Assembly (NCBI GenBank): GCA_947624415.1
Contig: CANQKH010000006.1
Location: forward strand, 13,910-77,909
DNA: 64,000 bases
From: an uncultured Clostridia bacterium
GTDB lineage: Bacteria; Bacillota; Clostridia; Christensenellales; UBA1242
Reading direction: 5' to 3'
Shown piece after piece: positions 1 through 54,777 of the stretch. The notes beneath the pieces were generated by a model. It saw only the letters and a list, made by a program, of their open reading frames with translations. It searched no databases and was not told where the DNA came from. The first letter of the stretch is position 1. Each line of letters starts with the position of its first letter. The position numbers were made by a program, and so were the translations under genes.

Positions 1-175
1 AAATTTTTCGCTTTTTCTCTTCCCATTAATTATAATTTAATTACATGGTTTTTAAGGCTTTACAACACTTAAATACTAATAAATTATTAAGTTTTAATTC
101 TCTTGATTTTCTAAATATAGCCTTATTTTCTTGACATAAATTTGAAAATATGTAAACTTGTAGTAGAGGAAAAAT

Positions 176-1012
176 ATGATAAGATTAGTCAAAATTGCAT
201 ATGCGTTTGTTATTTTTGCCTTACTTATGGTGTGTGGCATAATTTTTATTGACTTTCTTCGTGCTCCAAGTGTTTCAACGACAAACAAGCCATCTCAAAG
301 TTATATAATTTCCTCCACAAAGTCGGTAGGGGATGGAAAAATAGAAAAAATGCTTGCATATCAAACAAATTATCAAAATATTGGAGTTGATAATGAATAT
401 AAAAAGCAGGTTCATGACCTCCTTGTTGAAAAAATAAAGACTGTTGCAGAGGTAGAAAAGAATAGTCTTCTTAACAAATATAATTCACAACCTGATGATT
501 TTGAAGTAATAATTTTAAACACAAATGATGTGGCTGGCTATGTGATTAGATTTTCATCGCTTGACACATATAATTTTTATTACAATTCTATACAAAGAGA
601 GGTTAAAAAGGGTTCATTTGTTAATGTTATGACCCAAAAAATGCAATATCCGTTGACAACAGAAGAGGTCGAAAACTACAAAAATCTTATGATTGATGCA
701 GTTTCTAGCATTATAAATGAAGATGTTTCAAGCAAATATGTTCCTATTGTTTATTATGAATATGTTTCACCTAATTCTCATGGAAAGGCAAACGCCAATC
801 AAATTCAGCAGGATTCTCTTGGCTTCACGCACTATATTTGGCTTAACAACGCAGCAAATCAAGCAAAGGAACTTGTAATTAAAATAAATATAATAAACTA
901 TTGGTTATGGATTGTTGTTGGGCTGTTTTTACCTCTTAGCATAATGTGTGTTGCAATAGCAATTTTGTCGTTTAAAAAGGATTTAAGTAAAAAAGGCTTA
1001 AAAAATCAATAA
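176..1012 (+). CDS. hypothetical membrane protein (TM helix at each end)
   Basis: 278-aa ORF; hydrophobic N-terminus (FVIFALLMVCGIIFIDFL) and C-terminal TM (WLWIVVGLFLPLSIMCVAIAILSF); no catalytic motif recognised. Confidence 0.45.
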   Translation: MIRLVKIAYAFVIFALLMVCGIIFIDFLRAPSVSTTNKPSQSYIISSTKSVGDGKIEKMLAYQTNYQNIGVDNEYKKQVHDLLVEKIKTVAEVEKNSLLNKYNSQPDDFEVIILNTNDVAGYVIRFSSLDTYNFYYNSIQREVKKGSFVNVMTQKMQYPLTTEEVENYKNLMIDAVSSIINEDVSSKYVPIVYYEYVSPNSHGKANANQIQQDSLGFTHYIWLNNAANQAKELVIKINIINYWLWIVVGLFLPLSIMCVAIAILSFKKDLSKKGLKNQ

Positions 1013-1024
1013 AAAAGACAATAA

Positions 1025-1060
1025 AAAATAAAGTTTATGGTTATCCAAAAACTTTATTTT
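1025..1060. terminator. bidirectional intrinsic terminator between convergent genes
   Basis: 12-bp inverted repeat AAAATAAAGTTT / AAACTTTATTTT with A/T-rich flanks. Confidence 0.5.
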
Positions 1061-1064
1061 AAAA

Positions 1065-1535
1065 TTATTCCAAATCAATATAATTGTCGCTTTGATAGGG
1101 TTTATCACTTTGAGATTGAATTTCCTTTTGCTGATTATCTTCAATTTTAGCACCATCCTGCATAACTTTATTTTTCTCTTCTAAATATTTTTTATATCCA
1201 AATGGGTCAAAGTAACTTAATGTTCTCTCGGGGTCGTAGTTATTAGCCATAAATTTTACAAAACCTTGGTCTATTGCGTGATTTTGGCATTGTGTGCTTA
1301 ATATTAAAATGTAAACAGTTTTATAAGCAATATATTTATCTAATATTTTTCTATCTCTTTTTGTTTCCGTTCGGTTTGTATTTTTGCATATTTTTGTAAA
1401 TTTTTTTCTTATTTTATCTAATTGTGTAAGAAATTTATCATATGAAATAGTTTTATTGCCAATGTATCTTGAAAAATAAGCCTCACCAATTTTAATATAA
1501 TCTTTCATTTCTGACATTGTTGCATATACTCTCAT
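1065..1535 (-). CDS. hypothetical protein
   Basis: 156-aa ORF with GGAG about 7 nt upstream of the ATG; no recognisable motif. Confidence 0.45.
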   Translation of the reverse strand: MRVYATMSEMKDYIKIGEAYFSRYIGNKTISYDKFLTQLDKIRKKFTKICKNTNRTETKRDRKILDKYIAYKTVYILILSTQCQNHAIDQGFVKFMANNYDPERTLSYFDPFGYKKYLEEKNKVMQDGAKIEDNQQKEIQSQSDKPYQSDNYIDLE

Positions 1536-1618
1536 GTTTTATCTCCTTAAATATAATTATATCATAACTATAATTTTATGTCAATATTTAAAAATTTTTA
1601 AAATTAAAAGGAAAAATT

Positions 1619-2695
1619 ATGAAAATTTTGTTTTTTGATTTAGAATATGCGAGTTCTAAAAATGGTTGTAAAATTTGTGAGTTTGGCTACGTCATAACAG
1701 ATGAAAAATTGGATGTTATCGAAAAAAACAACTTGATTATAAATCCAAATTTAAAAAATGACGAGTGGGATTGGCGTGTTTTAAGGACAATTTTAACCCG
1801 CAGTAAAAGTGAATATGAGGAAAGGTTAACTTTTCGAGAATATTATCCCAAGATAAAATCAATAATTAATAGTTGTGATTACATATTAGGGCACTCACTT
1901 TTTAATGATGCAAAAGCACTCAATGACGATTGCAAAAGGTATAATCTGCCTAGTTTGAATTTTGAATTTTATGATGTAAAACTGTTTTATCAAGAATATG
2001 CAAACACAAAGGCTGAAATTTCAGTCAACAATATTTTGAAACAATTGAATGTAAAAGGGCAACAGGGTGAACACGATGCAGAAGTAGATGCCTACAATAC
2101 AATGTTGGAATTTAAAAAAATAATAAACAATCTTGGTGTTTCATTTATTGAAATGTTGGAGTTATGCCCCAACGTTAAAGATAAAAATGAAGATTTTAAA
2201 ATTTCATCTTTGCAGGAAAAAAGGAAAAATATTGAAAAAAGTAGCAAAAATCCAAAAAATTTTACAAAATTATTAAAAAATTTATATCAAAATTATCCCC
2301 AACGTAAAAATTGGAAGGCAATATGTTTTTCTGACACAATACTAGAAGATGATGTTGAAAGTCGGTTGAAACTTATAAAGGCAGTATTTGATAGTGGATT
2401 TAACTACACCCAAAACGTGTCATTATGCTCCTATTATGTTGCCGGCGAAAGGGCGGGAAAAAGAGATGAATCATACAATTACAACGTTGAGAAAAATAAT
2501 ATGCAAATAAATAAAATAACCCTTTCTGACCTTGCAAAATTATTAAATATAAAATTAAACGAAAAGGGAGAAATTATTGAAGGAAATTTGCCAAAATATA
2601 ATGAAAATTCCACAATTTACTTAAAATTAAAAGAAAGTCTCGATAAAAAAGGAATTTCATATGAGGAATTTATTAATAAACTAAATGATAATTAA
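1619..2695 (+). CDS. DEDDh (DnaQ-like) 3'-5' exonuclease domain protein with C-terminal extension (possibly BRCT-like)
   Basis: Exo I FFDLEYAS, Exo II-like GHSLFNDAKAL, Exo III HDAEVDAYNT (H-x4-D); C-terminal KAICFSDTIL...YYVAGERAGKR resembles a BRCT pattern. Confidence 0.65.
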   Translation: MKILFFDLEYASSKNGCKICEFGYVITDEKLDVIEKNNLIINPNLKNDEWDWRVLRTILTRSKSEYEERLTFREYYPKIKSIINSCDYILGHSLFNDAKALNDDCKRYNLPSLNFEFYDVKLFYQEYANTKAEISVNNILKQLNVKGQQGEHDAEVDAYNTMLEFKKIINNLGVSFIEMLELCPNVKDKNEDFKISSLQEKRKNIEKSSKNPKNFTKLLKNLYQNYPQRKNWKAICFSDTILEDDVESRLKLIKAVFDSGFNYTQNVSLCSYYVAGERAGKRDESYNYNVEKNNMQINKITLSDLAKLLNIKLNEKGEIIEGNLPKYNENSTIYLKLKESLDKKGISYEEFINKLNDN

Positions 2696-2710
2696 ATAAG
2701 GAGAATTATT

Positions 2711-3415
2711 ATGCCGGAATCAAAAAGAATTAAAGATTTGACAAAGGTCAATAGTGCAAATTTCGACACAATTGCAGAGGAACTTTTAGCAAAGTTGAAA
2801 GCTTTTGACGATGAGTTCGATTTCAGTGATGTAGAGGCACGAGAAGATGAAACAGAACGCAGTTTTTGTAAGGGTTTCCCTGATATGGGTGATGGAAAAG
2901 CAAAGACAACAGAAAGAAGGCTGTGCAAGTGTCTGTATTACACCAATATCGACAAGGAAGTTAAAACAAGATGCGACGTGTGCAAACTTAGAGACAGGCA
3001 AAGTGAAGGTTACCATGCAATACTTACAGGAAACTTCAAGGTGATATACTATGAATTTGTGCCAACTAACAAGGGGAGGGGTATTGGAAACGTCGATTTA
3101 ATTCTTGCTGATGAGAGTTTCGCATATTTGACAGAGGTAAAACCACCAAGGGGAAATGACGAAACCCTACTTCGTATGCTCCTTGAAATTGAAACATATT
3201 ACCGCGTTACCCTTCAAGGGAAGCAATATGAAGATATAGTCAAGGACAAGCCTCTAAGAAAGGCTATTCTCTTCTTTAAGGACAGCCCTCAATACAAAGC
3301 ATATTATGATTCATCTTGTGGAGTAAACACAAAAAAATTGCTTAAAAAATTTGGCATTACAGTGTTCTGTGCAGAATTTACAGGCAAAGAGGTTTTTATT
3401 AAAGCAATAGGATAA
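2711..3415 (+). CDS. hypothetical protein with Cys cluster and PD-(D/E)xK-like nuclease motif
   Basis: CKCLYY...RCDVCKLRD Cys cluster followed by GNVDLILADESFAYLTEVKPP (D ... E-x-K spacing); 15 nt after the exonuclease gene. Confidence 0.4.
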   Translation: MPESKRIKDLTKVNSANFDTIAEELLAKLKAFDDEFDFSDVEAREDETERSFCKGFPDMGDGKAKTTERRLCKCLYYTNIDKEVKTRCDVCKLRDRQSEGYHAILTGNFKVIYYEFVPTNKGRGIGNVDLILADESFAYLTEVKPPRGNDETLLRMLLEIETYYRVTLQGKQYEDIVKDKPLRKAILFFKDSPQYKAYYDSSCGVNTKKLLKKFGITVFCAEFTGKEVFIKAIG

Positions 3416-3426
3416 TTTAAAAAACA

Positions 3427-3460
3427 AAAAATGAGTTTAACTACAAAACTCATTTTTTTA
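3427..3460. terminator. bidirectional intrinsic terminator
   Basis: AAAATGAGTT / AACTCATTTT stem followed by T-run, between convergent genes. Confidence 0.5.
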
Positions 3461-3478: not shown

Positions 3479-4324
3479 TTACTCGCCATCATCTTTTAAG
3501 AAAACCATTACATATCTATGAGGTTCTTCGCCGCGGCTCATTGTAACAACTCTTGGGTCATCTGCAAGTGTTGAGTGAATTATTCTTCTTTCACTTGGGT
3601 TCATTGGGTCAAGTCTTGCATATCTTCCAGTCTTTACAACCTTCTCTGCAGTTTTTCTTGCAAGTTCTGCAAGCACTTCGCTTCTTCTTTCCTTGTATCC
3701 TCCAATATCAAGTAAAATTCTTTTTTCAGTTTTACCTGCGGCGGCACAAAGCACTCTGTTTATAGCATAGTAGCATTCTCCTCTATGGCCTATCATGTCG
3801 CCAAGATTTTCACCAACAACGCTGTAAGTTACATATTTGTCATCTTCGCTTGTATTTATTTGCACATCTTTTCCTGCGGCTTTAAACAATCCTTCAAGAA
3901 ATTCAACAGGGTCAACTCCTTTTTCTTGAGTTTTTACATTTTCTTCTTGTTCTAAGTTTTCCTGTTCTAAATCTTTAATTTCTTGTTTTTGCTCTTTTTT
4001 TAGAGTTTTTTCTTGATTTTTTACCTCTTTTTTGCTTTCTTTTGCTTCTTCTTTAGTTTCTTTCTTTTCTTCTTTTGTTTCTTTTTTATCTGTTTTTTTC
4101 TCTTCGTGTTCGGCAACTGTTGGTTTTGAATTTTCTTTAACAGTTGGTTTTTCATACTTTGCCTTTGCATCTTCAGATATTGTTACAAGCACTCTTGCCT
4201 TTTTAAACAAACCGCCTTCGCTTAATATCTTTATATCAACATCTTCGCGAGGTGCTTTTAATTCAAAAAGTGCGTTTTCAATTGCCTGTTCGATATTTTT
4301 TCCTATTCCCTCGGCTGATAACAT
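3479..4324 (-). CDS. khpB: RNA-binding protein KhpB/Jag (Jag_N, KH, R3H) with expanded K/E-rich linker
   Basis: N-terminal GKNIEQAIENALFELKAPREDVDIKILSEGG (Jag_N); C-terminal ERRIIHSTLADDPRVVTMSRGEEPHRYVMV (R3H); directly downstream of yidC as is typical. Confidence 0.85.
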   Translation of the reverse strand: MLSAEGIGKNIEQAIENALFELKAPREDVDIKILSEGGLFKKARVLVTISEDAKAKYEKPTVKENSKPTVAEHEEKKTDKKETKEEKKETKEEAKESKKEVKNQEKTLKKEQKQEIKDLEQENLEQEENVKTQEKGVDPVEFLEGLFKAAGKDVQINTSEDDKYVTYSVVGENLGDMIGHRGECYYAINRVLCAAAGKTEKRILLDIGGYKERRSEVLAELARKTAEKVVKTGRYARLDPMNPSERRIIHSTLADDPRVVTMSRGEEPHRYVMVFLKDDGE

Positions 4325-4344: not shown

Positions 4345-5730
4345 TTAAAATTTTCTTGAATAGTCAACGTTTTCAAGTTCTTTTTTCTCTTTTTTGGCTT
4401 TACGCTTGTCCATAACGAAATCTACAAACATAAGTTGTGGAACTAGTAGTAGTCCTGAAACAACTTGTCCTGTAAGCATATAAATTGAGAACACGCTGTT
4501 GTAGAATAGGGCAAACACACCAAGCAAGCATGGAACGATTATTTGTGATATTTTACCTTTTTCATTGTCAACTTTTGGCAAACCTTTCTTCTTATTCTTT
4601 CTATTGTTATAGAATTTTGTAAGTTGCATTGTTAAAAATGCTGCGGCTATACACAAAATTGGCAGTAAGAAGTATCCATTTGTTTTACTTTTTTGTGCTT
4701 TTAAGTCTGGCATGAAAGCATTGTAAATTCTTTCTTCGCCTTCCTGGAATGTATTTCTTACCTGGCCTCTCAAAGTGTTGTAACTTACAATTGATTTATT
4801 GAAAGGTGTGTCGGCAATCCAAATGTTTTCAATCCATAAAAAACTATCTTTTGTTTCGTCATAAACCTTTTTGACGTTTTCAATTGCCACTCTTTGAATG
4901 GCCTGTGAAAGGTATAACTTTTCTTCAACCGTATTTCCTTCGTCATCGGTTAAAACTTTTGTGTCAAGCAAAACATCTTTACTCCACTCTTCTTCGCCTT
5001 CCTCGTAGGTTGGAAAGTAAACATCTAAGAGTTTTATAATATTTTCATTTTCTTCTACAACTATTTCAACAGTTTCTCCTTTATAGTCAAGAATTGGTCG
5101 TTTTGAAGAAAAATCTTGCTTATAATCAATTTTGTCTAATTCCACATCATTATATACAAGTGCTATTGTATTATTTTCATCATCAATGACAAACTTCAAA
5201 TTCTCATAATCTGCAAAGTATTCAAGTCTGTCAAGTTTATCCTCTTGCGATTCAAAGTTTGATAGGTAGTGGTCCGCAACGTTTACACAATTTATGTATG
5301 TGTATCTTATACTTTCATAACTGTTTGCAATCTTGTAAGCAGACATAACGTTAAGTCCAGATAGTAGTGTAAAGAATATAAGAAGGTTTAATCCCATAAC
5401 TATTATTGTTATTGCACAACTACCATAGTAACCCTTGCCATAATACTTTTTATAAACTTCGTTTTGCTTCTGTTGTAAAACTTGTGGTTGTTTTTCGTAT
5501 TTTGCTTTAATCTTTGCAAGTTCGGGTTGCATTTTTGTTTGGACTGAGTTCATGTATTGTTGATTGAACTTTGTGCCAGTGTCAACAAGACCCCAAATAA
5601 GTCTTATCACAACAGTTAGCAATATAATTGCAAGCACGTAGTTTTTTGTTGCACCCTCAAAAGCCCGTATAATGTTTATCCAAAATCCGCTTGGCTCTTG
5701 CACCGACAAAAGACTGCTTATAAAAGCCAT
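4345..5730 (-). CDS. yidC: membrane protein insertase YidC/Oxa1 family, with large extracytoplasmic insertion
   Basis: MQPELAKIKAKYEK...QQKQNEVYKKY helical hairpin, FLWIENIWIADTPF motif, multiple TM helices, basic C-tail; conserved yidD-yidC-jag order. Confidence 0.85.
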   Translation of the reverse strand: MAFISSLLSVQEPSGFWINIIRAFEGATKNYVLAIILLTVVIRLIWGLVDTGTKFNQQYMNSVQTKMQPELAKIKAKYEKQPQVLQQKQNEVYKKYYGKGYYGSCAITIIVMGLNLLIFFTLLSGLNVMSAYKIANSYESIRYTYINCVNVADHYLSNFESQEDKLDRLEYFADYENLKFVIDDENNTIALVYNDVELDKIDYKQDFSSKRPILDYKGETVEIVVEENENIIKLLDVYFPTYEEGEEEWSKDVLLDTKVLTDDEGNTVEEKLYLSQAIQRVAIENVKKVYDETKDSFLWIENIWIADTPFNKSIVSYNTLRGQVRNTFQEGEERIYNAFMPDLKAQKSKTNGYFLLPILCIAAAFLTMQLTKFYNNRKNKKKGLPKVDNEKGKISQIIVPCLLGVFALFYNSVFSIYMLTGQVVSGLLLVPQLMFVDFVMDKRKAKKEKKELENVDYSRKF

Positions 5731-5981: not shown

Positions 5982-6342
5982 TTAAGTCTTTACCTTTTTT
6001 AAATATATCAAGAATTTCCTTTTCTATTTGTTTGTAGTCAAGTTCTCCAGCACCTTCTCGTGCCTTCAATACATAATTCCTCTTTGGCTGGGGCAGTTTG
6101 TTTAGTCTTACAATTTCTTTAAGTCGCCTGCGTAATAAATTTCTCTTCCAGGCTTTCCCGATTTTCTTCGAAATTGAATATCCAATCTTATAACAATTAT
6201 ACTTACTTCCGCAAGTGAATAATGTAAAATGCTTTGAACTGCTTCTCTCCCCATTTTTAAACAAAAAGTTGAACTGACTATTCCTTTTTAATCTATGGTC
6301 TGACCTCTCTTTTGTTTTAAGCAGATAATTTTTTTCTTCCAC
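5965..6342 (-). CDS. rnpA: ribonuclease P protein component
   Basis: [26 protein letters not shown] motif; immediately downstream of rpmH; GTG start as drawn overlaps rpmH by 26 nt, so the true start is uncertain. Confidence 0.8.
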
Positions 6343-6451
6343 GATTTCTTCTTCTTTTTAAAACATTTCTGCCACCTGTTGTTCTCATTCTCTCTCTAAA
6401 ACCATGAACTTTGCTTCTTTGTTTTTTCTTAGGTTGATAAGTTCTTTTCAT
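6317..6451 (-). CDS. rpmH: 50S ribosomal protein L34 (below ORF-track size cutoff)
   Basis: Hand translation: [45 protein letters not shown]; AGGAGG upstream of the ATG. Confidence 0.9.
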
Positions 6452-6574
6452 GACGTAGCCTCCTTTTTTAATATTAACTATTCAATTATATTAAAAAATT
6501 TACCATTTGTCAAGCGAAAATATATATCCATCTTTTAACAAAATTCTTTAATTTCAATATTTATTGCTTTATAG

Positions 6575-7093
6575 TCATTTATTGCTACTGCCAAACCCTT
6601 TATCACCTCGCTCAGATGGTATCTGTCGCAATGCCTCAATACTTATCTCCTGCTCTTCCATTTTCTCAACTCTATGTATTATCCCCTGTGCAATTGACTT
6701 CGATGTTGAATAAAACATAAACTCACGGTCTGGTATCTTCTTCCTTATCTCATCCTCTCCTAAAAGTGATAAAACAATTGGAAAGGTGTTGGCATTGTAT
6801 AGTGCAACTTTTATCTCTCCTCGATACCCACTATCAATTATCCCACCACATATTTTCATACCTTTAACACCAGTAGATGACCGCTCCTCAAGTTGAAGAT
6901 AATAATCCTCGCTCGAAGCCCAAGAAATCCCAGTTGGCAGCAGTCCAACATGAAAAGGCTCAATAATTATATATTCCTCGTCAAATGCAGCATAAAAGTC
7001 ATACCCCGCATTCTCAGCCTTCTTGGTTGGAATAAGTGCATCAGCCCTCGTTTTAGCCCAGTATACCTTATTGTTCTCTACAAAAAATTCCAT
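6575..7093 (-). CDS. dut: dUTP diphosphatase
   Basis: AGYDF, ERSSTG, GGIIDSGYRGE, RGDKGFGSS dUTPase motifs; internal ATG at 7093 preceded by GAGGTGG. Confidence 0.85.
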   Translation of the reverse strand: MEFFVENNKVYWAKTRADALIPTKKAENAGYDFYAAFDEEYIIIEPFHVGLLPTGISWASSEDYYLQLEERSSTGVKGMKICGGIIDSGYRGEIKVALYNANTFPIVLSLLGEDEIRKKIPDREFMFYSTSKSIAQGIIHRVEKMEEQEISIEALRQIPSERGDKGFGSSNK

Positions 7094-7140
7094 TTTCCAC
7101 CTCACTCCCTATATTATACCATACAAGTATTTTTAAAGTC

Positions 7141-7676
7141 AAAGGTTACTGACAAGAAACTTAGTTTCTATCAGTATCGAATGAGTGATATTTAAAATAT
7201 AAATTACACTCTCTCATTTATTTATAAGTGTTTAATTTTGTTTTATAAAAAATTAACATTTTCTTTTAATTTGCATTCAAATAATGTATAATGCAAATGA
7301 AGTTAAGTGTCTTTAATTTAAAGAAAACTTCATCTCCAACTCATATAGATAAGATAATTTTTTTATTGATTGATAATAATCATAATAATAATCTGTGTGG
7401 AAATGTGTATAATTTTTTTATTATACTATATATAGTGTAAAATAACAAAATTAAAAATTCAAAATACTATATATAGATAATAAAAATGTGGAATTAAAGT
7501 GGACAAGTTTATAATAATTATCCACTTTTGCACCTAAGTTTTTAAACAATGTGATTAATGAGAAAGTTTATTTTTTTATTTTTAAATATCACCCATTCGA
7601 TAATCGCCAAGCACCTGGGCTTGTAGAAACTAAGTTTTCCGTCAAACATTTGGTTTGTCGCCAAGCCTAAGGCTTG
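7141..7676. repeat. left arm of large inverted repeat flanking dnaN (hairpin modules + AT-rich DnaA-box core 7335-7563)
   Basis: Reverse complement of 7335-7563 aligns almost base-for-base with 9059-9288; flanking modules TTTAAATATCAcccATTCGAtAAtCG plus small hairpins are shared with 8846-9697. Confidence 0.85.
7518..7526 (+). promoter_or_regulatory. DnaA-box-like 9-mer TTATCCACT (1 mismatch to TTATCCACA)
   Basis: Read directly; further TCCAC-core boxes at 7396-7404, 7487-7495 and 7498-7506. Confidence 0.5.
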
Positions 7677-7694
7677 AAAAAAGATGAAAAAAGA

Positions 7695-7724
7695 TTGACA
7701 AAAATGATTTAAAGGATATATAAT
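7695..7724 (+). promoter_or_regulatory. sigma-70-type promoter of dnaN
   Basis: TTGACA (7695-7700), 18-nt spacer, TATAAT (7719-7724); AGGAG RBS before the ATG at 7745. Confidence 0.6.
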
Positions 7725-7744
7725 TAGATGTAAAAGGAGAATAT

Positions 7745-8845
7745 ATGATAGTAAGTTGTCAAGGTCTTGAACTTTCAGACGCATTACTCAAAGTTAGCAA
7801 GGCTATTTCGTCAAAAATTACAAATCCCATACTTGAGGGGATAAAGATGGTTGCTGAGGAGGATACATTAACTCTTTCCGCCACAGACACAGAACTTTCA
7901 ATTGAGAAAAAAATTAAAGCGAACGTTCGCAGTGAGGGTGAAACGGTTGTTCCTGGTCGTTTTTTGACTGAGTTTGTTAAGAAACTGACAAATTCAATTA
8001 TTGAACTTGAGGTTAACGACAAGAACCAATTATCTATAAAGTATGAAGACAGCGAGTCAAACATACAGTGCTACAGCCCTGTTGAATATCCCGGCTTTAA
8101 AAAGATTGCCACAGAGGACTATTTTGCTATAAGCAAGAAGGATTTTAAATCTTGTGTCCTTAAAACTATATTTTCTGTCGCACTTGATGACTCACGACCA
8201 ATTTTGAAAGGTGTCCTGTTTGATATATCCAAGAATGAAGTAAACGTTGTCGCACTTGACGGATATAGACTTGCAAGAGTTAAAAAGAGAGTTAATTCGA
8301 CTGTTGAAAAGGCAATTGTTATTCCTGCAAGAAGTCTTTCCGAACTTAGCAAACTTATAGATGATAGTGATGACATTATAAACATCTATATCGACCAATA
8401 CACCATTATGGCTGATTTGGGAGACACAAAGGTTACTTCAAGACTGCTCGAAGGCGACTATATTAACTATAAACAAATTATACCTGTCAATTATGAAAGT
8501 TTCGTTGTTGTCAATAAGGCATACTTCGAAGAAGCATTGGAAAGGGCAACCCTTGTTTCAAAAACAAGTAATAACAGTTTCGTTAAGTTTGACATAAAAG
8601 AAAACAATATTCTGTTGACGTCAAACTCAGAACTGGGAAACGTTCGCGAAAATATTTCAGTTGAACTTATGGGAAAAGATATTTTGATATCTTTCAATCC
8701 TCGCTATTTCCTCGAAAGTTTGAAGTCAGTTACAAACGACTTTGTAAAATTGTGCTTTAACAGCCCTTCAACACCATGTGTGATTGTCCCAACTGATAAT
8801 GATGAATTCCTTTATCTAATCCTCCCAGTCCGTGTAATTTCCTGA
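7745..8845 (+). CDS. dnaN: DNA polymerase III beta sliding clamp
   Basis: 366 aa; typical N-terminus (LLKVSKAISSK..NPILEGIKM) and three-domain length; ends ...YLILPVRVIS. Confidence 0.95.
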   Translation: MIVSCQGLELSDALLKVSKAISSKITNPILEGIKMVAEEDTLTLSATDTELSIEKKIKANVRSEGETVVPGRFLTEFVKKLTNSIIELEVNDKNQLSIKYEDSESNIQCYSPVEYPGFKKIATEDYFAISKKDFKSCVLKTIFSVALDDSRPILKGVLFDISKNEVNVVALDGYRLARVKKRVNSTVEKAIVIPARSLSELSKLIDDSDDIINIYIDQYTIMADLGDTKVTSRLLEGDYINYKQIIPVNYESFVVVNKAYFEEALERATLVSKTSNNSFVKFDIKENNILLTSNSELGNVRENISVELMGKDILISFNPRYFLESLKSVTNDFVKLCFNSPSTPCVIVPTDNDEFLYLILPVRVIS

Positions 8846-9697
8846 CAAACCAGATGTTTGACGATTATCGAATTAATGATATTTAAAAAATACAAACAAC
8901 ACTCTCTCACCAACAAACCAGATGTTTGACGATTATCGAATTAATGATATTTAAAGACATAAACAACACTCTCTCACCAACAAACCAGATGTTTGACGGA
9001 AAACTTAGTTTTCATCAGTATCGAATGAGTTATATTTAAAAATACAAATAAACTTTCTCATTAATCACATTGTTTAAAAATTTAGGTGCAAAAGTGGATA
9101 ATTATTATAGACTTGTCCACTTTAATTCCACATTTTTATTATCTATATATAGTATTTTGAATTTTTAATTTTGTTATTTTATACTATATATAGCATATTA
9201 AAAAATTTATACACATTTCCACACAGATTATTATTATGATTATTATCAATCAATAAAAAAATATCTTATCTATATGAGTTAAAAGATAAGATTTTTTTAT
9301 TATATTTTTATTTTTTATGCAATTAAAGAGAAAATATTAATTTAATAAACCCAAAATCAAACACTTATAAATAAATGAGAGAGTGTGGTTTATATTGTTT
9401 AAATATCACCCATTCGACAATCGTCAAACATCTGGTTTGTCGCCAAGCGCCTGGGCTTGATGGGAGAGTGGGTTATTTGTGTCTTTAAATATCATTAATT
9501 CGACACTGATGAAAACTAAGTTTTCCGTCAAACATCTGGTTTGTAGAAACTAAGTTTCTCGTCAAACATCTGGTTTGTCGCCAAGAGCCTGGGCTTGTTG
9601 AGAGAGTGCTTTTTATATTGTTTAAGTATCATTAATTCGATAATCGTCAAACATCTGGTTTGTAGAAACTAAGTTTTCCGTCAAACATCTGGTTTGT
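8846..9697. repeat. right arm of inverted repeat plus tandem 67-68-bp modules (8846, 8914, 8981) and forward modules (9399-9697)
   Basis: CAAACCAGATGTTTGACGATTATCGAATTAATGATATTTAAA... unit repeats at 68/67-bp spacing; core 9059-9288 is the inverted copy of 7335-7563. Confidence 0.85.
9093..9101 (-). promoter_or_regulatory. DnaA-box-like 9-mer (TTATCCACT on minus strand)
   Basis: Mirror copy of 7518-7526; additional TCCAC-core boxes at 9113-9121, 9124-9132 and 9215-9223. Confidence 0.5.
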
Positions 9698-11042
9698 TTG
9701 TTAGGAGTTTTTTTATTTCACTTATAAAGCCTTGTATTTTATGTGAGGTTTTTATTTCATCTGCTATTTTATCACGAGAGTGCATAATTGTTGTATGGTC
9801 TCGACCCCCGAAAATTTTACCTATTGACACGAGAGGGATTTCAAGTATTTCACTTATGAGATAGATTGCAATCATTCGAGGTTCAACAATTTCCTTGCTT
9901 TTTTTCTTTCCTATAATATCTTGCTTAGTTATATCAAAATACTTGCATACAGCCTCAATAATTTCATCAGGCGATAAACCTTCATTTTTATCTTCTTCTA
10001 TCTGGCCATTAAAGGCTTCCAACGCTTCTTCCATAGTTGCTGACTGCTTGTTTGATAAGTTTGCCAGGAAATGGACCTTAGCGAGCATACCTTCAAGTTC
10101 ACGGACATTTGAGTTTATATGTTCTGCGATAAAGTCAATAACATCGTCATCAATAGAATATTTTTCTATCTGGCATTTTTTGCGTAAAATAGCAATACGT
10201 GTTTCCAATTCAGGGTGCTGGATATCTTGAATAAGACCACTTGTGAAACGTGAACGCAACCTGTCTGCGAGAGTTTCAATTTCCTTTGGAGGGCGGTCAG
10301 AAGTAATAATAATTTGCTTTGACGCCATAAATAACTCATTAAAGGTGTAGAAAAATTCCTCTTGAGTTTGTATTTTTTTTGATATGAACTGAATGTCGTC
10401 AACCATTAAAACGTCAAGATTGCGATACTTTGTTCTAAACTCCAAAATTGCTTTGTTTTTGTTTGGAGAGCCTATTGAATCTATGTATTCATTTACGAAC
10501 TGCTCACAAGTAACGTAGCGAACATTTAGAGTTGGGAAATATTCTTTGTAATAATTGCCGATTGCGTGAAGTAGGTGGGTTTTTCCAAGCCCTGAGCCAC
10601 CATAAATGAATAGAGGGTTAAATTTAACACCAGAGTGTTCGGCAACGGCATGAGCGGCGGCGTAGACAAACTTGTTTGAATCACCGACAACGAAATTATC
10701 AAATGTATACTTAGGATTGAAAGGGTTTTTGTCGATATTGACTTCTTTTTCACTATTTTTATCGCCGTGGAGATTAATATATTCCATTTCTTCTGTTGGG
10801 TCTAAAATTTCAATCATAACATCTGTATCAAAAATATCATTGACGGCAGAAGATAACTTGTCAAAGTAATTTCTAGACAACTGGTTTTTTGCTGAGGTTG
10901 TGTTTGCCGACAAAATCAAGGTTTTGTTGTCGACAAAATCTATGACCTTAATAGGTTTAAACCACATAATAAAAGAGACGTTGGAAACAGTGAATTCAAG
11001 TTTGTCAAGCACGGCGTCCCAAAGGGTATTTAAATCTTTCAT
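9681..11042 (-). CDS. dnaA: chromosomal replication initiator protein DnaA
   Basis: Walker A GGSGLGKTHLLHAIGN, DDIQF, RSRF, C-terminal DNA-binding IGKIFGGRDHTTIMHSRDKI. Confidence 0.95.
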   Translation of the reverse strand: MKDLNTLWDAVLDKLEFTVSNVSFIMWFKPIKVIDFVDNKTLILSANTTSAKNQLSRNYFDKLSSAVNDIFDTDVMIEILDPTEEMEYINLHGDKNSEKEVNIDKNPFNPKYTFDNFVVGDSNKFVYAAAHAVAEHSGVKFNPLFIYGGSGLGKTHLLHAIGNYYKEYFPTLNVRYVTCEQFVNEYIDSIGSPNKNKAILEFRTKYRNLDVLMVDDIQFISKKIQTQEEFFYTFNELFMASKQIIITSDRPPKEIETLADRLRSRFTSGLIQDIQHPELETRIAILRKKCQIEKYSIDDDVIDFIAEHINSNVRELEGMLAKVHFLANLSNKQSATMEEALEAFNGQIEEDKNEGLSPDEIIEAVCKYFDITKQDIIGKKKSKEIVEPRMIAIYLISEILEIPLVSIGKIFGGRDHTTIMHSRDKIADEIKTSHKIQGFISEIKKLLTNKPDV

Positions 11043-11071
11043 AATTTCTCCATAAAATAATTTGCAATATG

Positions 11072-11100
11072 ATTATATAAAAAAAAATATTTTTTGTCAA
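11072..11100 (-). promoter_or_regulatory. consensus sigma-70-type promoter of dnaA
   Basis: On minus strand TTGACA (11100-11095), 17 nt, TATAAT (11077-11072). Confidence 0.6.
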
Positions 11101-11154
11101 TTACAAAGTGTAAAATGATTGTAAAATTTGCAAAAGTTTGATAAAATAATATCT

Positions 11155-12210
11155 ATGCTTATAAACTCACTACACCTTAAAGATTTTAGGTCATATAAAG
11201 ATAGAACAATAAAATTTAAAGAGGGAGTAAACATAATTGTTGGAAAAAATGCTCAAGGGAAAACGAATATACTTGAAGCAATCTTTTTTATGATAATAGG
11301 AAAATCGTTCCGCACATCAAAGGAAAAAGAGGTTATAAAATGGGAGGAAGATGGCGGGAAAATAGAGGGAGAATTTAAGAAAAAATATAGAGATGTCAAA
11401 ATTGAGATATTTTTTTCAAAATTTCAAAAAAAATCGATAAAAATTGATAATATTTCAATAAAAAAACTTGGTCAACTTTTAAGCACCGTTAACGGAGTTT
11501 TCTTTTCGCCAGATGAACTTAAACTTGTAAAAGAAAGCCCAGAAGAACGCAGACGATTTATGAATATAATATTATGCCAAACAGACAGAAAATACTTTTA
11601 TTTGTTAAGCAGATATGAAAAAGTGCTACAAAACCGCAATAAATTGCTTAAAACAACAAAAGATTTCAATTCATTAAAGGAAACAATTTACATTTGGGAT
11701 AAAGCACTTTGCGATTATGGTAAACAAATTTATAACGAAAGAAAAAAACTTATTGAACAACTATCGCCTTACGTTGAAAAAGCAGGCATATACCTTTCAA
11801 GTGGCAAGGAAAAAATTGAACTTGAATACAAAAGTTCATTTTCAGGTGATGATTATGACAAACAAATGGAGAATGCTTTAAGAGATAACCTTGAAAAAGA
11901 TTATAAAAGGGGCTTCACATCATGCGGCGTGCATAGAGATGAGATTGATATATTTTTAAATGGAGTTGAAGTCAAATCTTATGGCTCACAAGGTCAACAA
12001 CGAACGGTTGCATTGTCTCTTAAACTTGCCGAACTTGAAATAATAAAGGAGCGAACGGGGGAAGCACCATTACTTCTCCTCGATGATGTGTTCAGCGAAC
12101 TTGATGAAGAAAGAAGAAAAAAACTTTTAAAATTTACATCAAAGGCTCAAACAATTATAACTTGCACAGAATTTGATAAAGATGAAAATGTCAATATAAT
12201 AAAAATTTAA
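11155..12210 (+). CDS. recF: DNA replication/repair protein RecF
   Basis: LHLKDFRSY, Walker A GKNAQGKTNILEAI, LLLLDDVFSELDEERR; track ORF starts at TTG 11128, ATG at 11155 is more likely. Confidence 0.9.
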   Translation: MLINSLHLKDFRSYKDRTIKFKEGVNIIVGKNAQGKTNILEAIFFMIIGKSFRTSKEKEVIKWEEDGGKIEGEFKKKYRDVKIEIFFSKFQKKSIKIDNISIKKLGQLLSTVNGVFFSPDELKLVKESPEERRRFMNIILCQTDRKYFYLLSRYEKVLQNRNKLLKTTKDFNSLKETIYIWDKALCDYGKQIYNERKKLIEQLSPYVEKAGIYLSSGKEKIELEYKSSFSGDDYDKQMENALRDNLEKDYKRGFTSCGVHRDEIDIFLNGVEVKSYGSQGQQRTVALSLKLAELEIIKERTGEAPLLLLDDVFSELDEERRKKLLKFTSKAQTIITCTEFDKDENVNIIKI

Positions 12211-17646: not shown

Positions 17647-20031
17647 ATGAAAAAGAAATTCTTTTTGACGGCTCTTACCTTGTGTGCTGTAATCTGCTTG
17701 GGGTTGGGTCTGACCGCCTGCGGAAAGGGAAGCAATGATAAAGTAACAGCCACAAATGGGCTTGTCTATAAGTTAAACAAAGACAAGACAAGTTATAATT
17801 TGATTGACTATGATGAAAGCGTGGGACAGCAGAGTAGTGATATTGTTATTGCCAATGAAATTAATGGAAAACCTGTAGTTGCTGTCCAAAATGCTATATT
17901 TTATGACCAAGTAAATAAAGTTGGAAATGACAATATAAAAACTTTGACAATTCCTGACAATGTTGCAAAAATTACAGAAACATCTTTTTGGGGTCTATCG
18001 GCTCTTGAAGTTGTAAATATTGGAAGCGGTTTGAAAACCATTGAAGATGTTATTAGTTACTATGTTGATAAAGACAATCTTGCAGGTATATTTTTGGGAT
18101 GTGATAACATAACCCAATTTAATGTTTCACTAAACAATACAAATTATAGAAGTGAAGGTGCTTGTCTTATTGAAAAAGCAGGTGTTTCTTCTGGAGAAAG
18201 AAAAGGTGGCTCGGTAAACCAATACGACAAATTAATTTATAGTGGCAAGGGAAATGTTATACCTGAATCTGTTGGAATTATTGGTAAATATTGCTTTTTA
18301 AACAGAAAAACTGCCCTTTCTTCAACTATACCAAGCCAAATTAAGCAAATTGACGAGTATGCTTTTGCATTTAGTCAAATGAACGGCACTTTAAATTTGC
18401 ATGAAGGAATTGTTGAAATTGGAAACAACGCTTTTGACGGAGTTAAAGGAATAAGTGGAGATTTGGTTATACCTAACAGCCTTAAACGTGTAAGAACGAG
18501 TGCTTTTAAAGATTTAAATAATTTATCAAGCATTACAATAGGCGATGGCACTGAATATATAGAAAGTCATGCATTTGATGTTTTTGAAGCCGATTCGTTG
18601 AGAACGTTGGATTTTATAGAATTTGGCAAAAATTTAAAAATGATTGATGAAAATTCATTCTCGCGAACTGTAAAAAATGGTAGCGTTCCAGTTGCAAAAG
18701 AGTTGAGAATTTTTGCTGAGGGAGAAGTTGATATTGGAGATTTTCTTTACAACTTTGTTGACGAAAGCCAGTTAAAGAAATTTACTTTTCCTGCCACACC
18801 TTCAATTTTGAGGGCATTGGAGAAAAATTATATAAATCCAGGCTATGTTGATGATGGACTTGACCTTACTATAATAAGCGGTTCAATCCCTTCAAACTTT
18901 GGGGATTTGGCATTTGAAAAGGGTGCTAATGTTGCAAACTTGGTTATAAAAGAAGATGTTTCAAAAATAGAAGAAGGTGCGTTTACTCGCTCAAGTAGAA
19001 ACCCAGCATTTGAAAATATTGTAATAGAATACAATCCAAATAGAGTTTGGGAGGGAAGTGTAAGCGACTCCTCAATTACAAGTTTAACTGCTAATGCAAG
19101 TGATGTTAAATATTTCAGCGGGATGCAAAATCTTTATGTAACAGGTGGACAAATTGGTGAAAACGCTTTTGACGATGGCTCTTGCTTAACATCAGTAAAA
19201 ACTTTAAGATTGGGACAAAGCGTAACAGTTGTTGATGCTTCAGCACTATTAAAAAGCAGTAGTCGTCAAACGATTACTGTGGACGCAGGCAACTCCAAAT
19301 ACCATGTTGATGACAGTCAAACCTGCCTTATTGATGACGCAAATACACTTGTTCTTGGTTGCAAAACTACAACAACAATCCCAAGCGAAGTTACAAAAAT
19401 AGGCATCCAAGCCTTTGCAAACACAGAAACAACATTAACAGTTATTCCAGAAGGGGTAACAACCATTTATTCAAATGCGTTTGAGGGCTGTGCAATGAGA
19501 AGTATATCTTTACCTGCAAGTTTAAATGACATGAGCACATCAAATTTATCATTCTTCGCCTTTTTGAATTGTAGAAAACTTGGCAGCATAACAGTTGACC
19601 CTTCAAATAGAAATTATTCAAGCCAAAATGGACTGCTTTACAATAAGGATAAAAGTCAACTAATTTATGTTCCATGTAACGCAACAAATATAAGAATTGC
19701 AGACACTGTTTCAACTTTAACCTCAAAAGCATTCCAAGACTTGCGAAATAGTTATGGAACTTATAGCAACAAGATTTCAATCACTTTGGGTAAAGGCGTA
19801 ACAAAGATTGAAAGAGATGTGCTAAGCGATAGAGTGTTTGAGAGAATTAATTTGCCAGAAGAATTTTATAACACAACTTGGAAATATGGCAATATGCCTG
19901 GTGAACGTTATGAAATCAAATATAATGGTGAAGGCGAAGTAACAAACGTGCAAATAACAGAGGCCTTGACCGCCGCAGCAACTTTCTTTTTGAATAATTC
20001 GACCAAAACATTTGAACTTGTTGTTGAATAA
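17647..20031 (+). CDS. surface lipoprotein with BspA-type leucine-rich repeats
   Basis: Signal peptide plus lipobox (LGLGLTAC); repeated I-P-x-x-V-x-x-I-x-x-x-A-F units throughout. Confidence 0.75.
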   Translation: MKKKFFLTALTLCAVICLGLGLTACGKGSNDKVTATNGLVYKLNKDKTSYNLIDYDESVGQQSSDIVIANEINGKPVVAVQNAIFYDQVNKVGNDNIKTLTIPDNVAKITETSFWGLSALEVVNIGSGLKTIEDVISYYVDKDNLAGIFLGCDNITQFNVSLNNTNYRSEGACLIEKAGVSSGERKGGSVNQYDKLIYSGKGNVIPESVGIIGKYCFLNRKTALSSTIPSQIKQIDEYAFAFSQMNGTLNLHEGIVEIGNNAFDGVKGISGDLVIPNSLKRVRTSAFKDLNNLSSITIGDGTEYIESHAFDVFEADSLRTLDFIEFGKNLKMIDENSFSRTVKNGSVPVAKELRIFAEGEVDIGDFLYNFVDESQLKKFTFPATPSILRALEKNYINPGYVDDGLDLTIISGSIPSNFGDLAFEKGANVANLVIKEDVSKIEEGAFTRSSRNPAFENIVIEYNPNRVWEGSVSDSSITSLTANASDVKYFSGMQNLYVTGGQIGENAFDDGSCLTSVKTLRLGQSVTVVDASALLKSSSRQTITVDAGNSKYHVDDSQTCLIDDANTLVLGCKTTTTIPSEVTKIGIQAFANTETTLTVIPEGVTTIYSNAFEGCAMRSISLPASLNDMSTSNLSFFAFLNCRKLGSITVDPSNRNYSSQNGLLYNKDKSQLIYVPCNATNIRIADTVSTLTSKAFQDLRNSYGTYSNKISITLGKGVTKIERDVLSDRVFERINLPEEFYNTTWKYGNMPGERYEIKYNGEGEVTNVQITEALTAAATFFLNNSTKTFELVVE

Positions 20032-20238: not shown

Positions 20239-20691
20239 GGAAACTAAGTTTCCCAAGAGAGGGCGGAATATGTTTTTTTCAAATATAGCCAAATTCGATA
20301 ACGATGGAAACTAAGTTTCCCAAGAGAGAGCGGAATATGTTTTTTTCAAATATAGCCAAATTCGATAACGATGGAAACTAAGTTTTCTCGATAATGATGG
20401 AAACTAGGTTTCCTAAGAGAGAGCGGATTATTTTTTTTCAAGTATCACAACATTCGATAATGATGGAAACTAAGTTTCCTCGATAATGATGGAAACTAAG
20501 TTTTCCAAGAGAGAACGGAATATGTTTTTTCAAATATAGCCAAATTCGATAACGATGGAAACTAAGTTTCCTCGATAATGATGGAAACTAGGTTTCCTAA
20601 GAGAGAGCGGATTATTTTTTTTCAAGTATCACAACATTCGATAATGATGGAAACTAAGTTTCCTCGATAACGATGGAAACTTTAGTTTCCT
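20239..20691. repeat. array of 10 GGAAACTAAGTTTCC hairpins in alternating 66-67-bp and 26-bp units
   Basis: Hairpin starts at 20239, 20306, 20373, 20399, 20465, 20491, 20557, 20583, 20649, 20675; unit also carries AAGAGAGrGCGGA and CAAATATAGCCAAATTCGATAACGAT; same module grammar as the origin repeats. Confidence 0.85.
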
Positions 20692-21404
20692 GGGAAGGTG
20701 AAAAGGAGATAATGATTGTCGCCGTCAAAAATTTCAACATCTGGCAAAATCAAACGCTTTGATGCTGATGTTTTATAATCAAAATATGGATTGATTATTT
20801 GAATATATTTATTTTTGTTTAATATAACCTTCTCAAAATTTTTGTCAATGCAAGTGCTTAGTGCAAGGGTATATCTTAATTTTTCACCTCGATTATCAAG
20901 TATCCCGTATATTTTTTCATGCACATTATATTTTTTCTTAAATTTTAAAATTATCCCCTCAATTTCTTTAATTGAAAAAAGCGTATATGTAACCCCATAC
21001 AAAATAAGGCGAGGCATTTCGCACCAACTCATGTTAAGTGGCAACTTGCTAAATTCAGTTTCGTTAAATTCCAGCCTGTTTAAAAACTTAAATTCACCAC
21101 TTTGCGAAGGAGATACGCCATGGAATTTTTTAAATGCACGCGAAAAACCCTCTCGCGAATCATATCCGCACATAATTGCCACTTCAACAATCTTTTGATT
21201 TTTAAGCAAAAAAACAGCCTCACTTAACCGCCTCAGCCGAACATACTCGACGGGCGTATAGTTTGTGAGAAGTTCAAATATAATCTTGCTGTAAATCTCA
21301 TTCATTTCAAGTATTTTGGAGATTTCATTGTAATTTATATCCTCAAAAAGATGCCCCTCCAAATAATCAATTACATTATTCAATTTTCTATAAATGTTTT
21401 CCAT
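20682..21404 (-). CDS. AraC/XylS family transcriptional regulator
   Basis: N-terminal dual HTH ending GYDSREGFSRAFKKFHGVSPSQ; C-terminal effector-type domain; divergent from the 21613 operon. Confidence 0.75.
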   Translation of the reverse strand: MENIYRKLNNVIDYLEGHLFEDINYNEISKILEMNEIYSKIIFELLTNYTPVEYVRLRRLSEAVFLLKNQKIVEVAIMCGYDSREGFSRAFKKFHGVSPSQSGEFKFLNRLEFNETEFSKLPLNMSWCEMPRLILYGVTYTLFSIKEIEGIILKFKKKYNVHEKIYGILDNRGEKLRYTLALSTCIDKNFEKVILNKNKYIQIINPYFDYKTSASKRLILPDVEIFDGDNHYLLFTFPGN

Positions 21405-54408: not shown

Positions 54409-54777
54409 TCTTACTCCCAAAGTGAATTGTAATTGTTTGAGGTTATATTTTTTCATCAATGAATATTTTTTTCATTGAATGAATTACTTCTTCCTTGCGT
54501 TGCAATAAAAATTGCGGAGACATTTTACCTGCCTGTGAAAGGGCAAAACAAAGTTTGTGCTTGAAACCTTTTCACCTATGCAATGTAAAACTTATATTAA
54601 TTAATTCTATTATATTATAAATAAAATTAATTTTCAAGTGGAAATAGTAAAATTTTTGCCAAGAAAGGGCTTTCTTTAACGAAAAAAATCCAAAATAGCA
54701 CAATTTTGGTTAAAAATATATAAAAATATAAAAAATTTACCAAAAAATTAAATCAAAATAATTTTAAAATTTGCAAA

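Follow-up and report, generated by a model that had tools for sequence, protein, structure and literature searches.

We analysed a 64-kb stretch of contig CANQKH010000006.1 (hereafter the window) from the genome of an uncultured gut Clostridia species (32% G+C), in which dnaN, the gene for the beta clamp of DNA polymerase III, lies between the two arms of an inverted repeat that contain DnaA boxes. Genes were identified with NCBIfam. dnaN (7745–8845, plus strand; TIGR00663, 283.9 bits; supported also by synteny in 74 species) is convergent with dnaA (9681–11042, minus strand; TIGR00362, 492 bits), and dnaA is divergent from recF (11128–12210, plus strand; TIGR00611, 376.9 bits), as in relatives. 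On the other side of dnaN lies a dUTPase-family gene on the minus strand (dut-like, hereafter dut; 6575–7105), which scored 83.6 bits against TIGR00576, below the cutoff, and which is assigned to Pfam dUTPase on contigs of the European Nucleotide Archive (ENA). In relatives, dut is located downstream of dnaN on the same strand. An earlier note on this DNA had given the order dut(–), dnaN(+), dnaA(–), recF(+), and the NCBIfam matches bear it out.

The left arm (7177–7602) and the right arm (9019–9417) were delimited by gapped BLASTN of one against the other, which aligned 7177–7602 with 9417–9019 over 431 columns at 87% identity. An ungapped repeat finder detected 7357–7588 versus 9031–9262, at 95% identity over 232 nt. 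The inverted repeat is real and far above chance, in agreement with the high-identity repeat around dnaN that the earlier note had described by eye. Identity between the arms is distributed unevenly: it is 94.8% at 7336–7602 and 85.7% at 7177–7270, and at 7271–7335 it falls to 56%, with many indels. The 232-nt core of the arms is 95–96% identical (9 differences in 232 columns) and is significantly more alike than the periphery (14 in 98), including spacer DNA that is variable between species. This high core identity suggests past gene conversion between the arms. Overall, 57 of the 431 aligned columns differ between the arms, and the exact runs that they share measure 71 nt (7438–7508), 56 nt (7357–7412), 32, 28 and 28 nt, so that none exceeds 71 nt. 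Arms of this size, ~430 nt, are not the tens-of-bp repeats of a site-specific inverton. The left arm also contains a block of ~45 nt (7277–7325) that is absent from the right arm. An open reading frame (ORF) of 49 amino acids (7291–7440, plus strand), annotated as a 47-amino-acid gene on the ENA contigs, is present in the left arm; the right arm lacks an equivalent of it and no family matched it, and it is probably spurious.

Each arm contains a core that is collinear with the dnaA–dnaN spacers of relatives (left, 7336–7545, minus strand; right, 9076–9283, plus strand), and both cores point away from dnaN, the right one towards dnaA. Along the right core we found a remnant of the dnaA 3΄ end that overlaps a box (9090–9101), two further boxes (9113–9121 and 9124–9132), two palindrome cores (9143–9152 and 9184–9193), two tandem boxes (9207–9215 and 9215–9223), a trio-like tract (9227–9247) and an AT tract (9248–9275). 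The left core carries the same elements in mirror order, namely the AT tract (7344–7371), the trio-like tract (7372–7392), the tandem boxes (7396–7404 and 7404–7412), the palindromes (7423–7438 and 7464–7479), two boxes (7487–7495 and 7498–7506) and the box with the dnaA 3΄ remnant (7518–7529). The AT-rich tract in each arm had been seen in the earlier note, which had also listed four DnaA-box-like 9-mers per arm; its coordinates were correct, but its count was one short. The box that it missed, TGTGTATAA at 7404–7412 and TTATACACA at 9207–9215, is one mismatch from the consensus and is the conserved member of the tandem pair beside the trios. Boxes with at most one mismatch number two per arm versus 20 in the whole 64 kb, a modest cluster by count, and the clusters are considered real because they are conserved in relatives, not by count alone.

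We scanned the arms using the search rules of Pelliciari et al. 2021 (PMC8287927) for oriC of the basal unwinding system (BUS) type, in which a box with ≤2 mismatches to TTATCCACA is accompanied by a tandem box with ≤4 mismatches and, after a spacer of ≤16 nt, by at least three NAN trios. The pattern occurred once per arm, with a 1-mismatch box, a 2-mismatch tandem box, an 11-nt spacer and seven NTN triplets. In the right arm, the order is TTATACACA, ATTTCCACA, ‘cag’ and the seven triplets. The second tandem box, ATTTCCACA, with two mismatches, is found at 9215–9223 and 7396–7404, and the pair is conserved in relatives. In both arms, the seven consecutive NTN triplets begin 11 nt past the first box and 3 nt past the second. 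All DnaA boxes, the trio tract and the AT tract are identical between the arms, and none of the nine core differences (0/9) falls in a box or trio; therefore, both copies look competent, as judged from their sequence.

Each origin copy also contains two 16-bp palindromes that resemble NrdR boxes and that are conserved in the dnaA–dnaN spacer of most relatives. The palindrome ATACTATATATAGTGT agrees at 15 of 16 positions with the NrdR consensus. The linker between the two palindromes is 25 nt; the usual linker between NrdR boxes is 15–16 nt. These sites hint that NrdR, a repressor that senses deoxynucleoside triphosphates, may bind inside the oriC of this clade. The palindromes were also considered as canonical parS sites, and this was rejected: there is no parS within two mismatches in the window.

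GTDB species genomes were scanned with DnaN, which yielded 74 loci from uncultured gut Clostridia, all set with dnaN on the plus strand (individual loci are denoted by L numbers). By BLASTN, the arms matched the region directly upstream of dnaN in ~35 species, and the orientation of the matches was constant, the right arm always matching in plus and the left arm always in minus. In these ~35 related species, a single module lies between dnaA and dnaN and points at dnaN. The dnaA–dnaN spacers of 25 species have one common architecture. They start with AAAGGTGGATAA, which consists of the last dnaA codons and the stop codon and forms a DnaA box, followed by two tandem boxes (TTATCCACAAnTTATCCACA), two CTATATATAG palindromes, GTTATCCACATTTgCACA, a 3-nt-periodic tract (TTATTATTAATATTATTAT), AATAAATAAAAAA, a G+C cluster and the dnaN promoter. 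Positions 9084–9290 of the right arm (plus strand) are collinear with this spacer up to the AT tract, including the dnaA remnant AAAAGTGGATAA at 9090–9101. Of 69 species, 30 have the tandem pair followed by at least five trios on the strand of dnaN, and two have it on the other strand. Among the 30 species with the order recF– dnaA+ dnaN+, we counted 106 boxes with at most one mismatch in the dnaA–dnaN spacers versus 8 in the recF–dnaA spacers, and the oriC of this lineage is therefore monopartite and located downstream of dnaA. Each arm is, on the evidence of its sequence, a complete copy of the lineage oriC module, not half of a bipartite origin as the earlier note had proposed. The idea that the arms are a mobile element, such as a miniature inverted-repeat transposable element, unrelated to the origin was ruled out by the collinearity of the core with the syntenic spacer of ~35 species. 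An inverted repeat of at least 60 nt around dnaN was found in the window species only, among the 74 loci.

We mapped the gene order of relatives using tblastn, and also drew on longer contigs. The commonest order was recF– dnaA+ [core] dnaN+ dut+ rpmH+ rnpA+ yidD+ yidC+ jag+ mnmE+ rsmG+, which is the canonical Bacillota order with the dnaA–oriC–dnaN block inverted and dut inserted; the arrangement rnpA– rpmH– dnaA+ is retained in more distant relatives. Accordingly, rpmH(–) followed by dnaA(+), which the earlier note had taken as the reference, is not the order of this lineage, which is recF– dnaA+ dnaN+ dut+ rpmH+. Read on the minus strand, the window has recF– dnaA+ [core] dnaN– [core] dut+ rpmH+, in other words the lineage order with only dnaN inverted. 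The map agrees with the earlier suggestion that flipping dnaN between the arms restores the dnaA-then-dnaN order, which is that of most relatives. The comparison with related genomes that was proposed at the same time was likewise informative, as it showed both the inversion of dnaN relative to the lineage order and the correspondence of the arms to the origin DNA of ~35 species. Among the relatives, dut alone is inverted in L019, L032, L034, L041, L042, L043 and L067, and recF lies downstream of dnaN in L036, L040 and L084.

The cumulative GC skew of the window has its minimum at ~8–10 kb, over the locus, so that the skew check named in the earlier note, applied to these 64 kb, supports an origin here; the neighbouring genes fit one as well. 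Long ORFs occupy the minus strand between 3.5 and 7.1 kb, and past 11 kb most of them are on the plus strand.

The cores are embedded in a family of short mosaic repeats. Around the origin we found eight units of ~67 nt, located at 7141–7220, 7558–7676, 8845–9063 (three units) and 9375–9697 (three units). The modules of a unit are GAGAGAG, ~18 nt, TTTAAATATCA, ATTCGATAA, an optional 18-mer CGTCAAACATCTGGTTTGT and a 15-bp palindrome GRAAACTAAGTTTYC. The first unit (U1, 7141–7220; nhmmer match 7156–7217, repeat families D1 and D6) faces the left core with its GAGAGAG end. One or more units (U2, 7558–7676), with one 18-mer (7641–7658), lie between the left core and the dnaN promoter. Three tandem units with a period of 67 nt, each opening with the 18-mer (U3–U5, 8845–9063), follow dnaN directly, U3 starting at the final base of the dnaN stop codon. 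The remaining units (U6–U8, 9375–9697) contain five 18-mers, and the last of them includes the dnaA stop codon. The units bracket each core as inverted pairs and also bracket dnaN. Every neighbouring pair among dut, the left core, dnaN, the right core and dnaA is thus separated by mosaic units, which occur in both orientations. The weaker outer similarity that the earlier note had reported between 7141–7676 and 8990–9470 is present, but its nature is different from an extension of the arms: it consists of separate copies of the ~67-nt repeat that match in several registers, direct as well as inverted. The 18-mer CGTCAAACATCTGGTTTGT has nine copies, all within 7641–9697. As a candidate site for an origin-specific protein, the 18-mer GTCAAACATCTGGTTTGT was rejected; it is confined to the origin in the window, yet it is an optional insert of the wider family.

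A second array of the same mosaic family lies at 20239–20690, 10.5 kb from the origin. It contains 6–7 units with periods of 67 and 92 nt and is located between a BspA-type leucine-rich repeat gene (17647–20031, plus strand) and an AraC-type regulator (20682–21404, minus strand), where it coincides with a break in synteny relative to L083. In total, nhmmer detected 14 units in the 64 kb, at two loci within 13 kb. Related arrays immediately precede dnaN in L009 and L048 and follow dut in L006–L008, and arrays are also present in L078 and L080. When JGI metagenome contigs and IMG/VR were searched with the palindrome pattern, we obtained 85 and 4 single chance matches, respectively, and no arrays.

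The genes around the cores appear to be equipped with promoters of their own. The dnaN promoter (7695–7724, plus strand) consists of TTGACA, 18 nt and TATAAT, and the dnaA promoter (11100–11072, minus strand) lies in the dnaA–recF spacer; both match 12 of 12 consensus positions. Both had been predicted in the earlier note, the former as a consensus promoter inside the flippable segment and the latter as lying in a spacer free of boxes, and indeed no DnaA box with at most one mismatch was found in the dnaA–recF spacer of the window. The sequence of the dnaN promoter is identical upstream of dnaN in L080, L082 and L004. A promoter-like site of dut (7142–7113, minus strand; TTGACT, 18 nt, TG-TATAAT; 11 of 12 positions) abuts U1, and rpmH has a consensus or near-consensus promoter at 6513–6485. 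Because dnaN, dnaA, dut and rpmH each have their own promoter, the expression of each module would be possible wherever it is placed and would survive shuffling.

One breakpoint of the rearrangement can be seen at the 3΄ end of dnaA. In relatives, DnaA ends in SEIKKMLKGG, whereas the DnaA of the window ends in SEIKKLLTNKPDV (tail KKLLTNKPDV). Its last residues, LLTNKPDV, and the stop codon (9681–9683) are encoded by a mosaic unit, which replaced the ancestral MLKGG and stop. The ancestral dnaA end, AAAAGTGGATAA, which is also a DnaA box, is now found at the inner end of both arms (7518–7529 and 9090–9101). The fusion of dnaA with the repeat (KKLLT...) is common to the window, L179/L180 and L181; since it is shared with sister species, it is older than the duplication that is specific to the window. 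At the other end of the module, the sequence that ancestrally joined the outer end of the core to the dnaN promoter (ATCTATATGCTAAAAAGAGGGAAAAAAGATTGACA in L080, L082 and L004) is broken in the window ~15 nt upstream of the –35 hexamer.

In the sister species, whose DnaN is 94–96% identical (~82% at the DNA level), modules and repeats occur in other permutations. L080, L081 and L082 have rpmH– dut–, a repeat unit, a core pointing at dnaN, dnaN+ and an array of units, at which the contig ends. L078 and L079 have rnpA– rpmH– dut–, a plus-strand ORF (ORF225), a unit, dnaN+, a unit, a core that points towards dnaN from downstream and a further unit, followed by unrelated genes. In L180, recF– dnaA+ and two units are followed by a run of unrelated genes. 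L083, with a DnaN that is 91% identical, has dnaA– recF+ sdr+ and, further on, [core] dnaN+ dut+ rnpA+. The sister species have one core beside dnaN, and their dnaA is located elsewhere and unlinked to dnaN. Their contigs tend to end just after dnaA or in the core or repeats, as is expected for multi-copy sequence. This subclade has a rearrangement hotspot at its origin, and the mosaic repeats, by their position at every junction, are the likeliest agents of rearrangement.

The orientation of the two cores constrains how the arrangement of the window arose. The core beside dnaA has the reverse of its ancestral orientation to that gene, and so does the core upstream of dnaN with respect to dnaN; as both cores point outward, at least two events are required, not the one inversion between the arms that the earlier note had envisaged. 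A simple inversion of dnaN, an inversion of the core together with dnaN, and recombination following an inverted duplication are all ruled out as single steps by the orientation of the dnaA-proximal core. A staggered-break duplication-inversion and an intramolecular replicative transposition each predict the ancestral orientation for that core, and this is not what we observed. In the path that we propose, recombination or template switching among the mosaic repeats would free the core from dnaA and from the dnaN promoter. The core would then flip without leaving its site between the dnaN promoter and the 3΄ end of dnaA, so that its inner end would come to face the dnaN promoter and its outer end the 3΄ end of dnaA. 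In a second step, dnaN would be inverted and the core duplicated, with one copy on each side; this would join dut to an outer core end and the 3΄ end of dnaN to an inner one. All four junctions are accounted for by these two steps, the shortest path that we found.

Our preferred reading, to which we assign a probability of roughly 0.7, is that this region is the chromosomal origin, in which a single oriC unwinding module was duplicated and inverted around dnaN, and dnaN was turned round. The locus is then most likely a fixed, repeat-mediated rearrangement that has left two intact origin copies. DnaA is likely to bind each of them, and one or both might fire; since the copies are only 1.85 kb apart, they would act as one origin region.

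Several points weigh against this reading. The BUS pattern is permissive at 32% G+C, with ~5.5 chance matches per 64 kb in shuffled sequences, and because the rules are this loose, the weight rests on conservation in relatives. The placement of the origin by GC skew draws on 64 kb of the genome, in which the genes at 176–3415 are on the plus strand and the skew is positive, as would be unexpected to the left of an origin. The two-step path is inferred, and the intermediate that it predicts, with the core flipped and dnaN not, was found in no species. The firing of either copy is a prediction from sequence, and a causal role of the mosaic repeats is suggested by their position, at every junction. 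Finally, the ENA contigs described below come from short-read assemblies of ~3x coverage, in which a minority orientation of dnaN would be invisible.

Whether the arms still recombine bears directly on the word ‘fixed’. Searches for exact copies of the DnaN, DnaA and Dut proteins all led to three ENA contigs and no others. These contigs come from the three samples behind ERZ27249662, ERZ27249657 and ERZ27249187 and, together with the metagenome-assembled genome of the window, amount to four assemblies. The three contigs have the arrangement of the window at 99.92–100% identity, and a second dnaN orientation was not found in the four assemblies. Of the two possibilities raised in the earlier note, a frozen or a still-active inversion, the former is consistent with this single orientation and the latter found no evidence. 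An active flip-flop, in which the arms recombine so that both dnaN orientations coexist as origin isomers, either neutrally or with an effect on dnaN expression or on replication–transcription conflict, is nonetheless compatible with some observations. With exact runs of 56 and 71 nt, the arms would offer enough length for a renewed flip of dnaN by RecA-type recombination; the core is 96% identical, its excess similarity over the periphery suggests past gene conversion, and dnaN carries its promoter within the segment. In addition, of two contigs of the same strain, L001 differs from the window over 8.4 kb at four sites only (7413, 7421, 7425 and 7437), all in the left arm, and L002 differs at the same four sites plus one further single-nucleotide polymorphism (SNP). 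In both, all four sites, a tract of 25 nt, switch to the right-arm state, and no other donor for 7413–7437 is present in the window. However, this 4-SNP tract fills exactly the gap between the only two stretches of at least 55 nt (56 and 71) in which the arms match perfectly. The default largest k of metaSPAdes is 55, and the ENA contigs carry SPAdes-style names along with their ~3x coverage. Since a collapsed k=55 assembly bulge predicts the same tract, we downgraded gene conversion as evidence of active recombination; the tract could be due to either process. Moreover, a new mutation in one arm automatically makes the comparison strain resemble the state of the other arm. Recombinase, resolvase and integrase domains were absent from the 20 ORFs scanned, which span 176–21404, and therefore any flipping would have to proceed by general homologous recombination. 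Taken together with the single orientation in all four assemblies, these points make an active flip-flop unlikely. The broader proposal that the origin region of the subclade is a recombinationally dynamic cassette system, in which mosaic repeats have colonised oriC and continue to reshuffle dnaA, the oriC core, dnaN and dut, and in which recombination between two live back-to-back origins of this species still flips dnaN within populations, appears more doubtful still; under this proposal, the repeat arrays may themselves be bound by proteins near the origin, by analogy with centromere arrays.

The other alternatives accept one orientation and differ in what the second copy is. One arm might be the working origin and the other a relic, either a decaying by-product or a titrator of DnaA; a single module suffices in relatives, the outer parts of the arms have already diverged to 56–86% identity with indels, and the block at 7277–7325 is present in the left arm only. 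Yet an unconstrained and unconverted copy at the peripheral divergence should have lost some elements, whereas the two arms have identical boxes, trio tracts and AT tracts throughout, and 0 of 9 core differences fall in a box or trio; we regard a relic as possible although somewhat unlikely. A cooperative bipartite origin, in which DnaA bridges two arms that are both needed and loops out dnaN, would fit two DnaA-box clusters 1.4–1.9 kb apart with one gene between them, and looping bipartite origins are established in Bacillota and C. difficile (PMC7561715). The halves of those origins differ, and the unwinding element is present in one of them only (PMC7561715), whereas here both are complete duplicates. 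This alternative is also at odds with the monopartite origin of the lineage (106 versus 8 boxes), with the restriction of the duplication to one species, and with sister species that have one core beside dnaN and dnaA elsewhere; we consider it improbable. Least probable by far is an assembly artefact, in which the duplicate or the orientation of dnaN was made by short-read metagenome assembly. All sources are indeed metagenome assemblies, three of them at ~3x, and sister-species contigs break inside the repeats; but the same structure, save for 4–5 sites, was assembled independently from three samples and in an 81.7-kb NCBI contig. With 57 differing columns in 431 and a longest exact run of 71 nt between the arms, reads of 100–150 nt would span unique arm combinations. 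The junctions are also coherent, in that dnaA reads into the repeat to a new stop codon, and this junction is conserved in sister species.

Two inverted origin copies that bracket dnaN resemble several known systems in part. BUS-type origins of Bacillota, which lie in the dnaA–dnaN spacer as do B. subtilis incC and C. difficile oriC2, likewise have a tandem box pair, trinucleotides within 16 nt and an AT-rich tract near dnaA/dnaN. Their triplets have a central T on the box strand (3΄-NAN-5΄ on the other); here they read TTA TTA TTA, and in C. difficile CTA CTA CTA TTA. In contrast to those origins, the window has two complete inverted copies around dnaN, neither in the ancestral orientation, and no box cluster upstream of dnaA. 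The bipartite origins of B. subtilis (incAB/incC), H. pylori (oriC1/oriC2) and C. difficile (oriC1/oriC2) are similar in having two box clusters with one replication gene between them, and bridging by DnaA is conceivable here as well. In the known cases, dnaA lies between unlike parts and there is a single unwinding element (PMC7561715). The gene looped out in B. subtilis and H. pylori is dnaA, whereas the gene between the parts is dnaN here, and the parts are inverted duplicates, 87–96% identical, each with an unwinding module.

More than one complete origin per chromosome is tolerated elsewhere, for example in M. bovis BCG Pasteur, where DU1 is a 29.7-kb direct tandem duplication that includes oriC (PMC2448323), and in Pseudomonas and Halomonadaceae with dual oriC1/oriC2 (Weigel 2025 preprint). 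The copies described here differ from these in being ~0.4 kb long, inverted and 1.4 kb apart, with an essential gene inverted between them. The two origins of Pseudomonas are non-identical and lie at different loci. Flip-flop recombination between long inverted repeats generates the isomers of plastid genomes and of the yeast 2-micron plasmid, in which inverted repeats of hundreds of bp bracket a unique segment, as they do here. In the window species, however, no second isomer was observed, there is no dedicated recombinase in the scanned ORFs, and the repeats are 87–96% identical. The mosaic units can be compared with REP/BIME, the mosaic intergenic repeats of enterobacteria: they are short, intergenic, modular and palindrome-bearing, and occur in arrays, in both orientations, at more than one locus and at rearrangement junctions. 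They differ from REP/BIME in that they have no sequence relationship to them, are longer (~67 nt) and, within the 64 kb, are found only near the origin. In the literature, we found no report of a short inverted duplication of a whole unwinding module that brackets an inverted dnaN.

Few gene neighbourhoods in bacteria are as conserved as rnpA–rpmH–dnaA–oriC–dnaN, on which origin predictors depend. The lineage described here appears to have dismantled it naturally: the module was freed from dnaA with the loss of the last dnaA codons, turned and duplicated, dnaN was inverted so that it is convergent with dnaA, and dnaA and dnaN are unlinked in sister species. Should both copies prove active, the chromosome would be a natural case of two complete, identical unwinding modules at a distance of 1.85 kb, and it would then offer a test of module orientation and copy number in initiation. 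The locus would be a useful hard case for Ori-Finder and DoriC-type tools. It also points to the mosaic repeats as drivers of rearrangement at the origin itself.

Beyond dut, the genes on the minus strand continue the lineage order with rpmH (6317–6451), followed in the gene list by rnpA and yidD, a YidC-family insertase gene (4345–5730; below the family cutoff) and jag (3479–4324), all assigned with NCBIfam. Farther left, at 1–3415, the GC skew is positive and plus-strand genes predominate where genes on the minus strand would be expected; a further recent rearrangement may have its boundary near 3450. An Rfam scan of 6400–11200 yielded a single, sub-threshold match and none in the repeats. 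The match is to AsdA, an antisense RNA of dnaA mRNA, at 10525–10604 on the plus strand inside dnaA (35.2 bits versus a gathering score of 52; E 1.4e-4); its strand is antisense to that of dnaA, and the conserved coding sequence of dnaA probably explains it. At a distance from the origin, a 231-nt tandem repeat with ~4.8 copies (35274–36355) lies inside an ORF of 737 amino acids (34664–36877, minus strand), and an ORF of 2206 amino acids is found at 47839–54459 (minus strand). Both ORFs probably encode large repetitive surface proteins.

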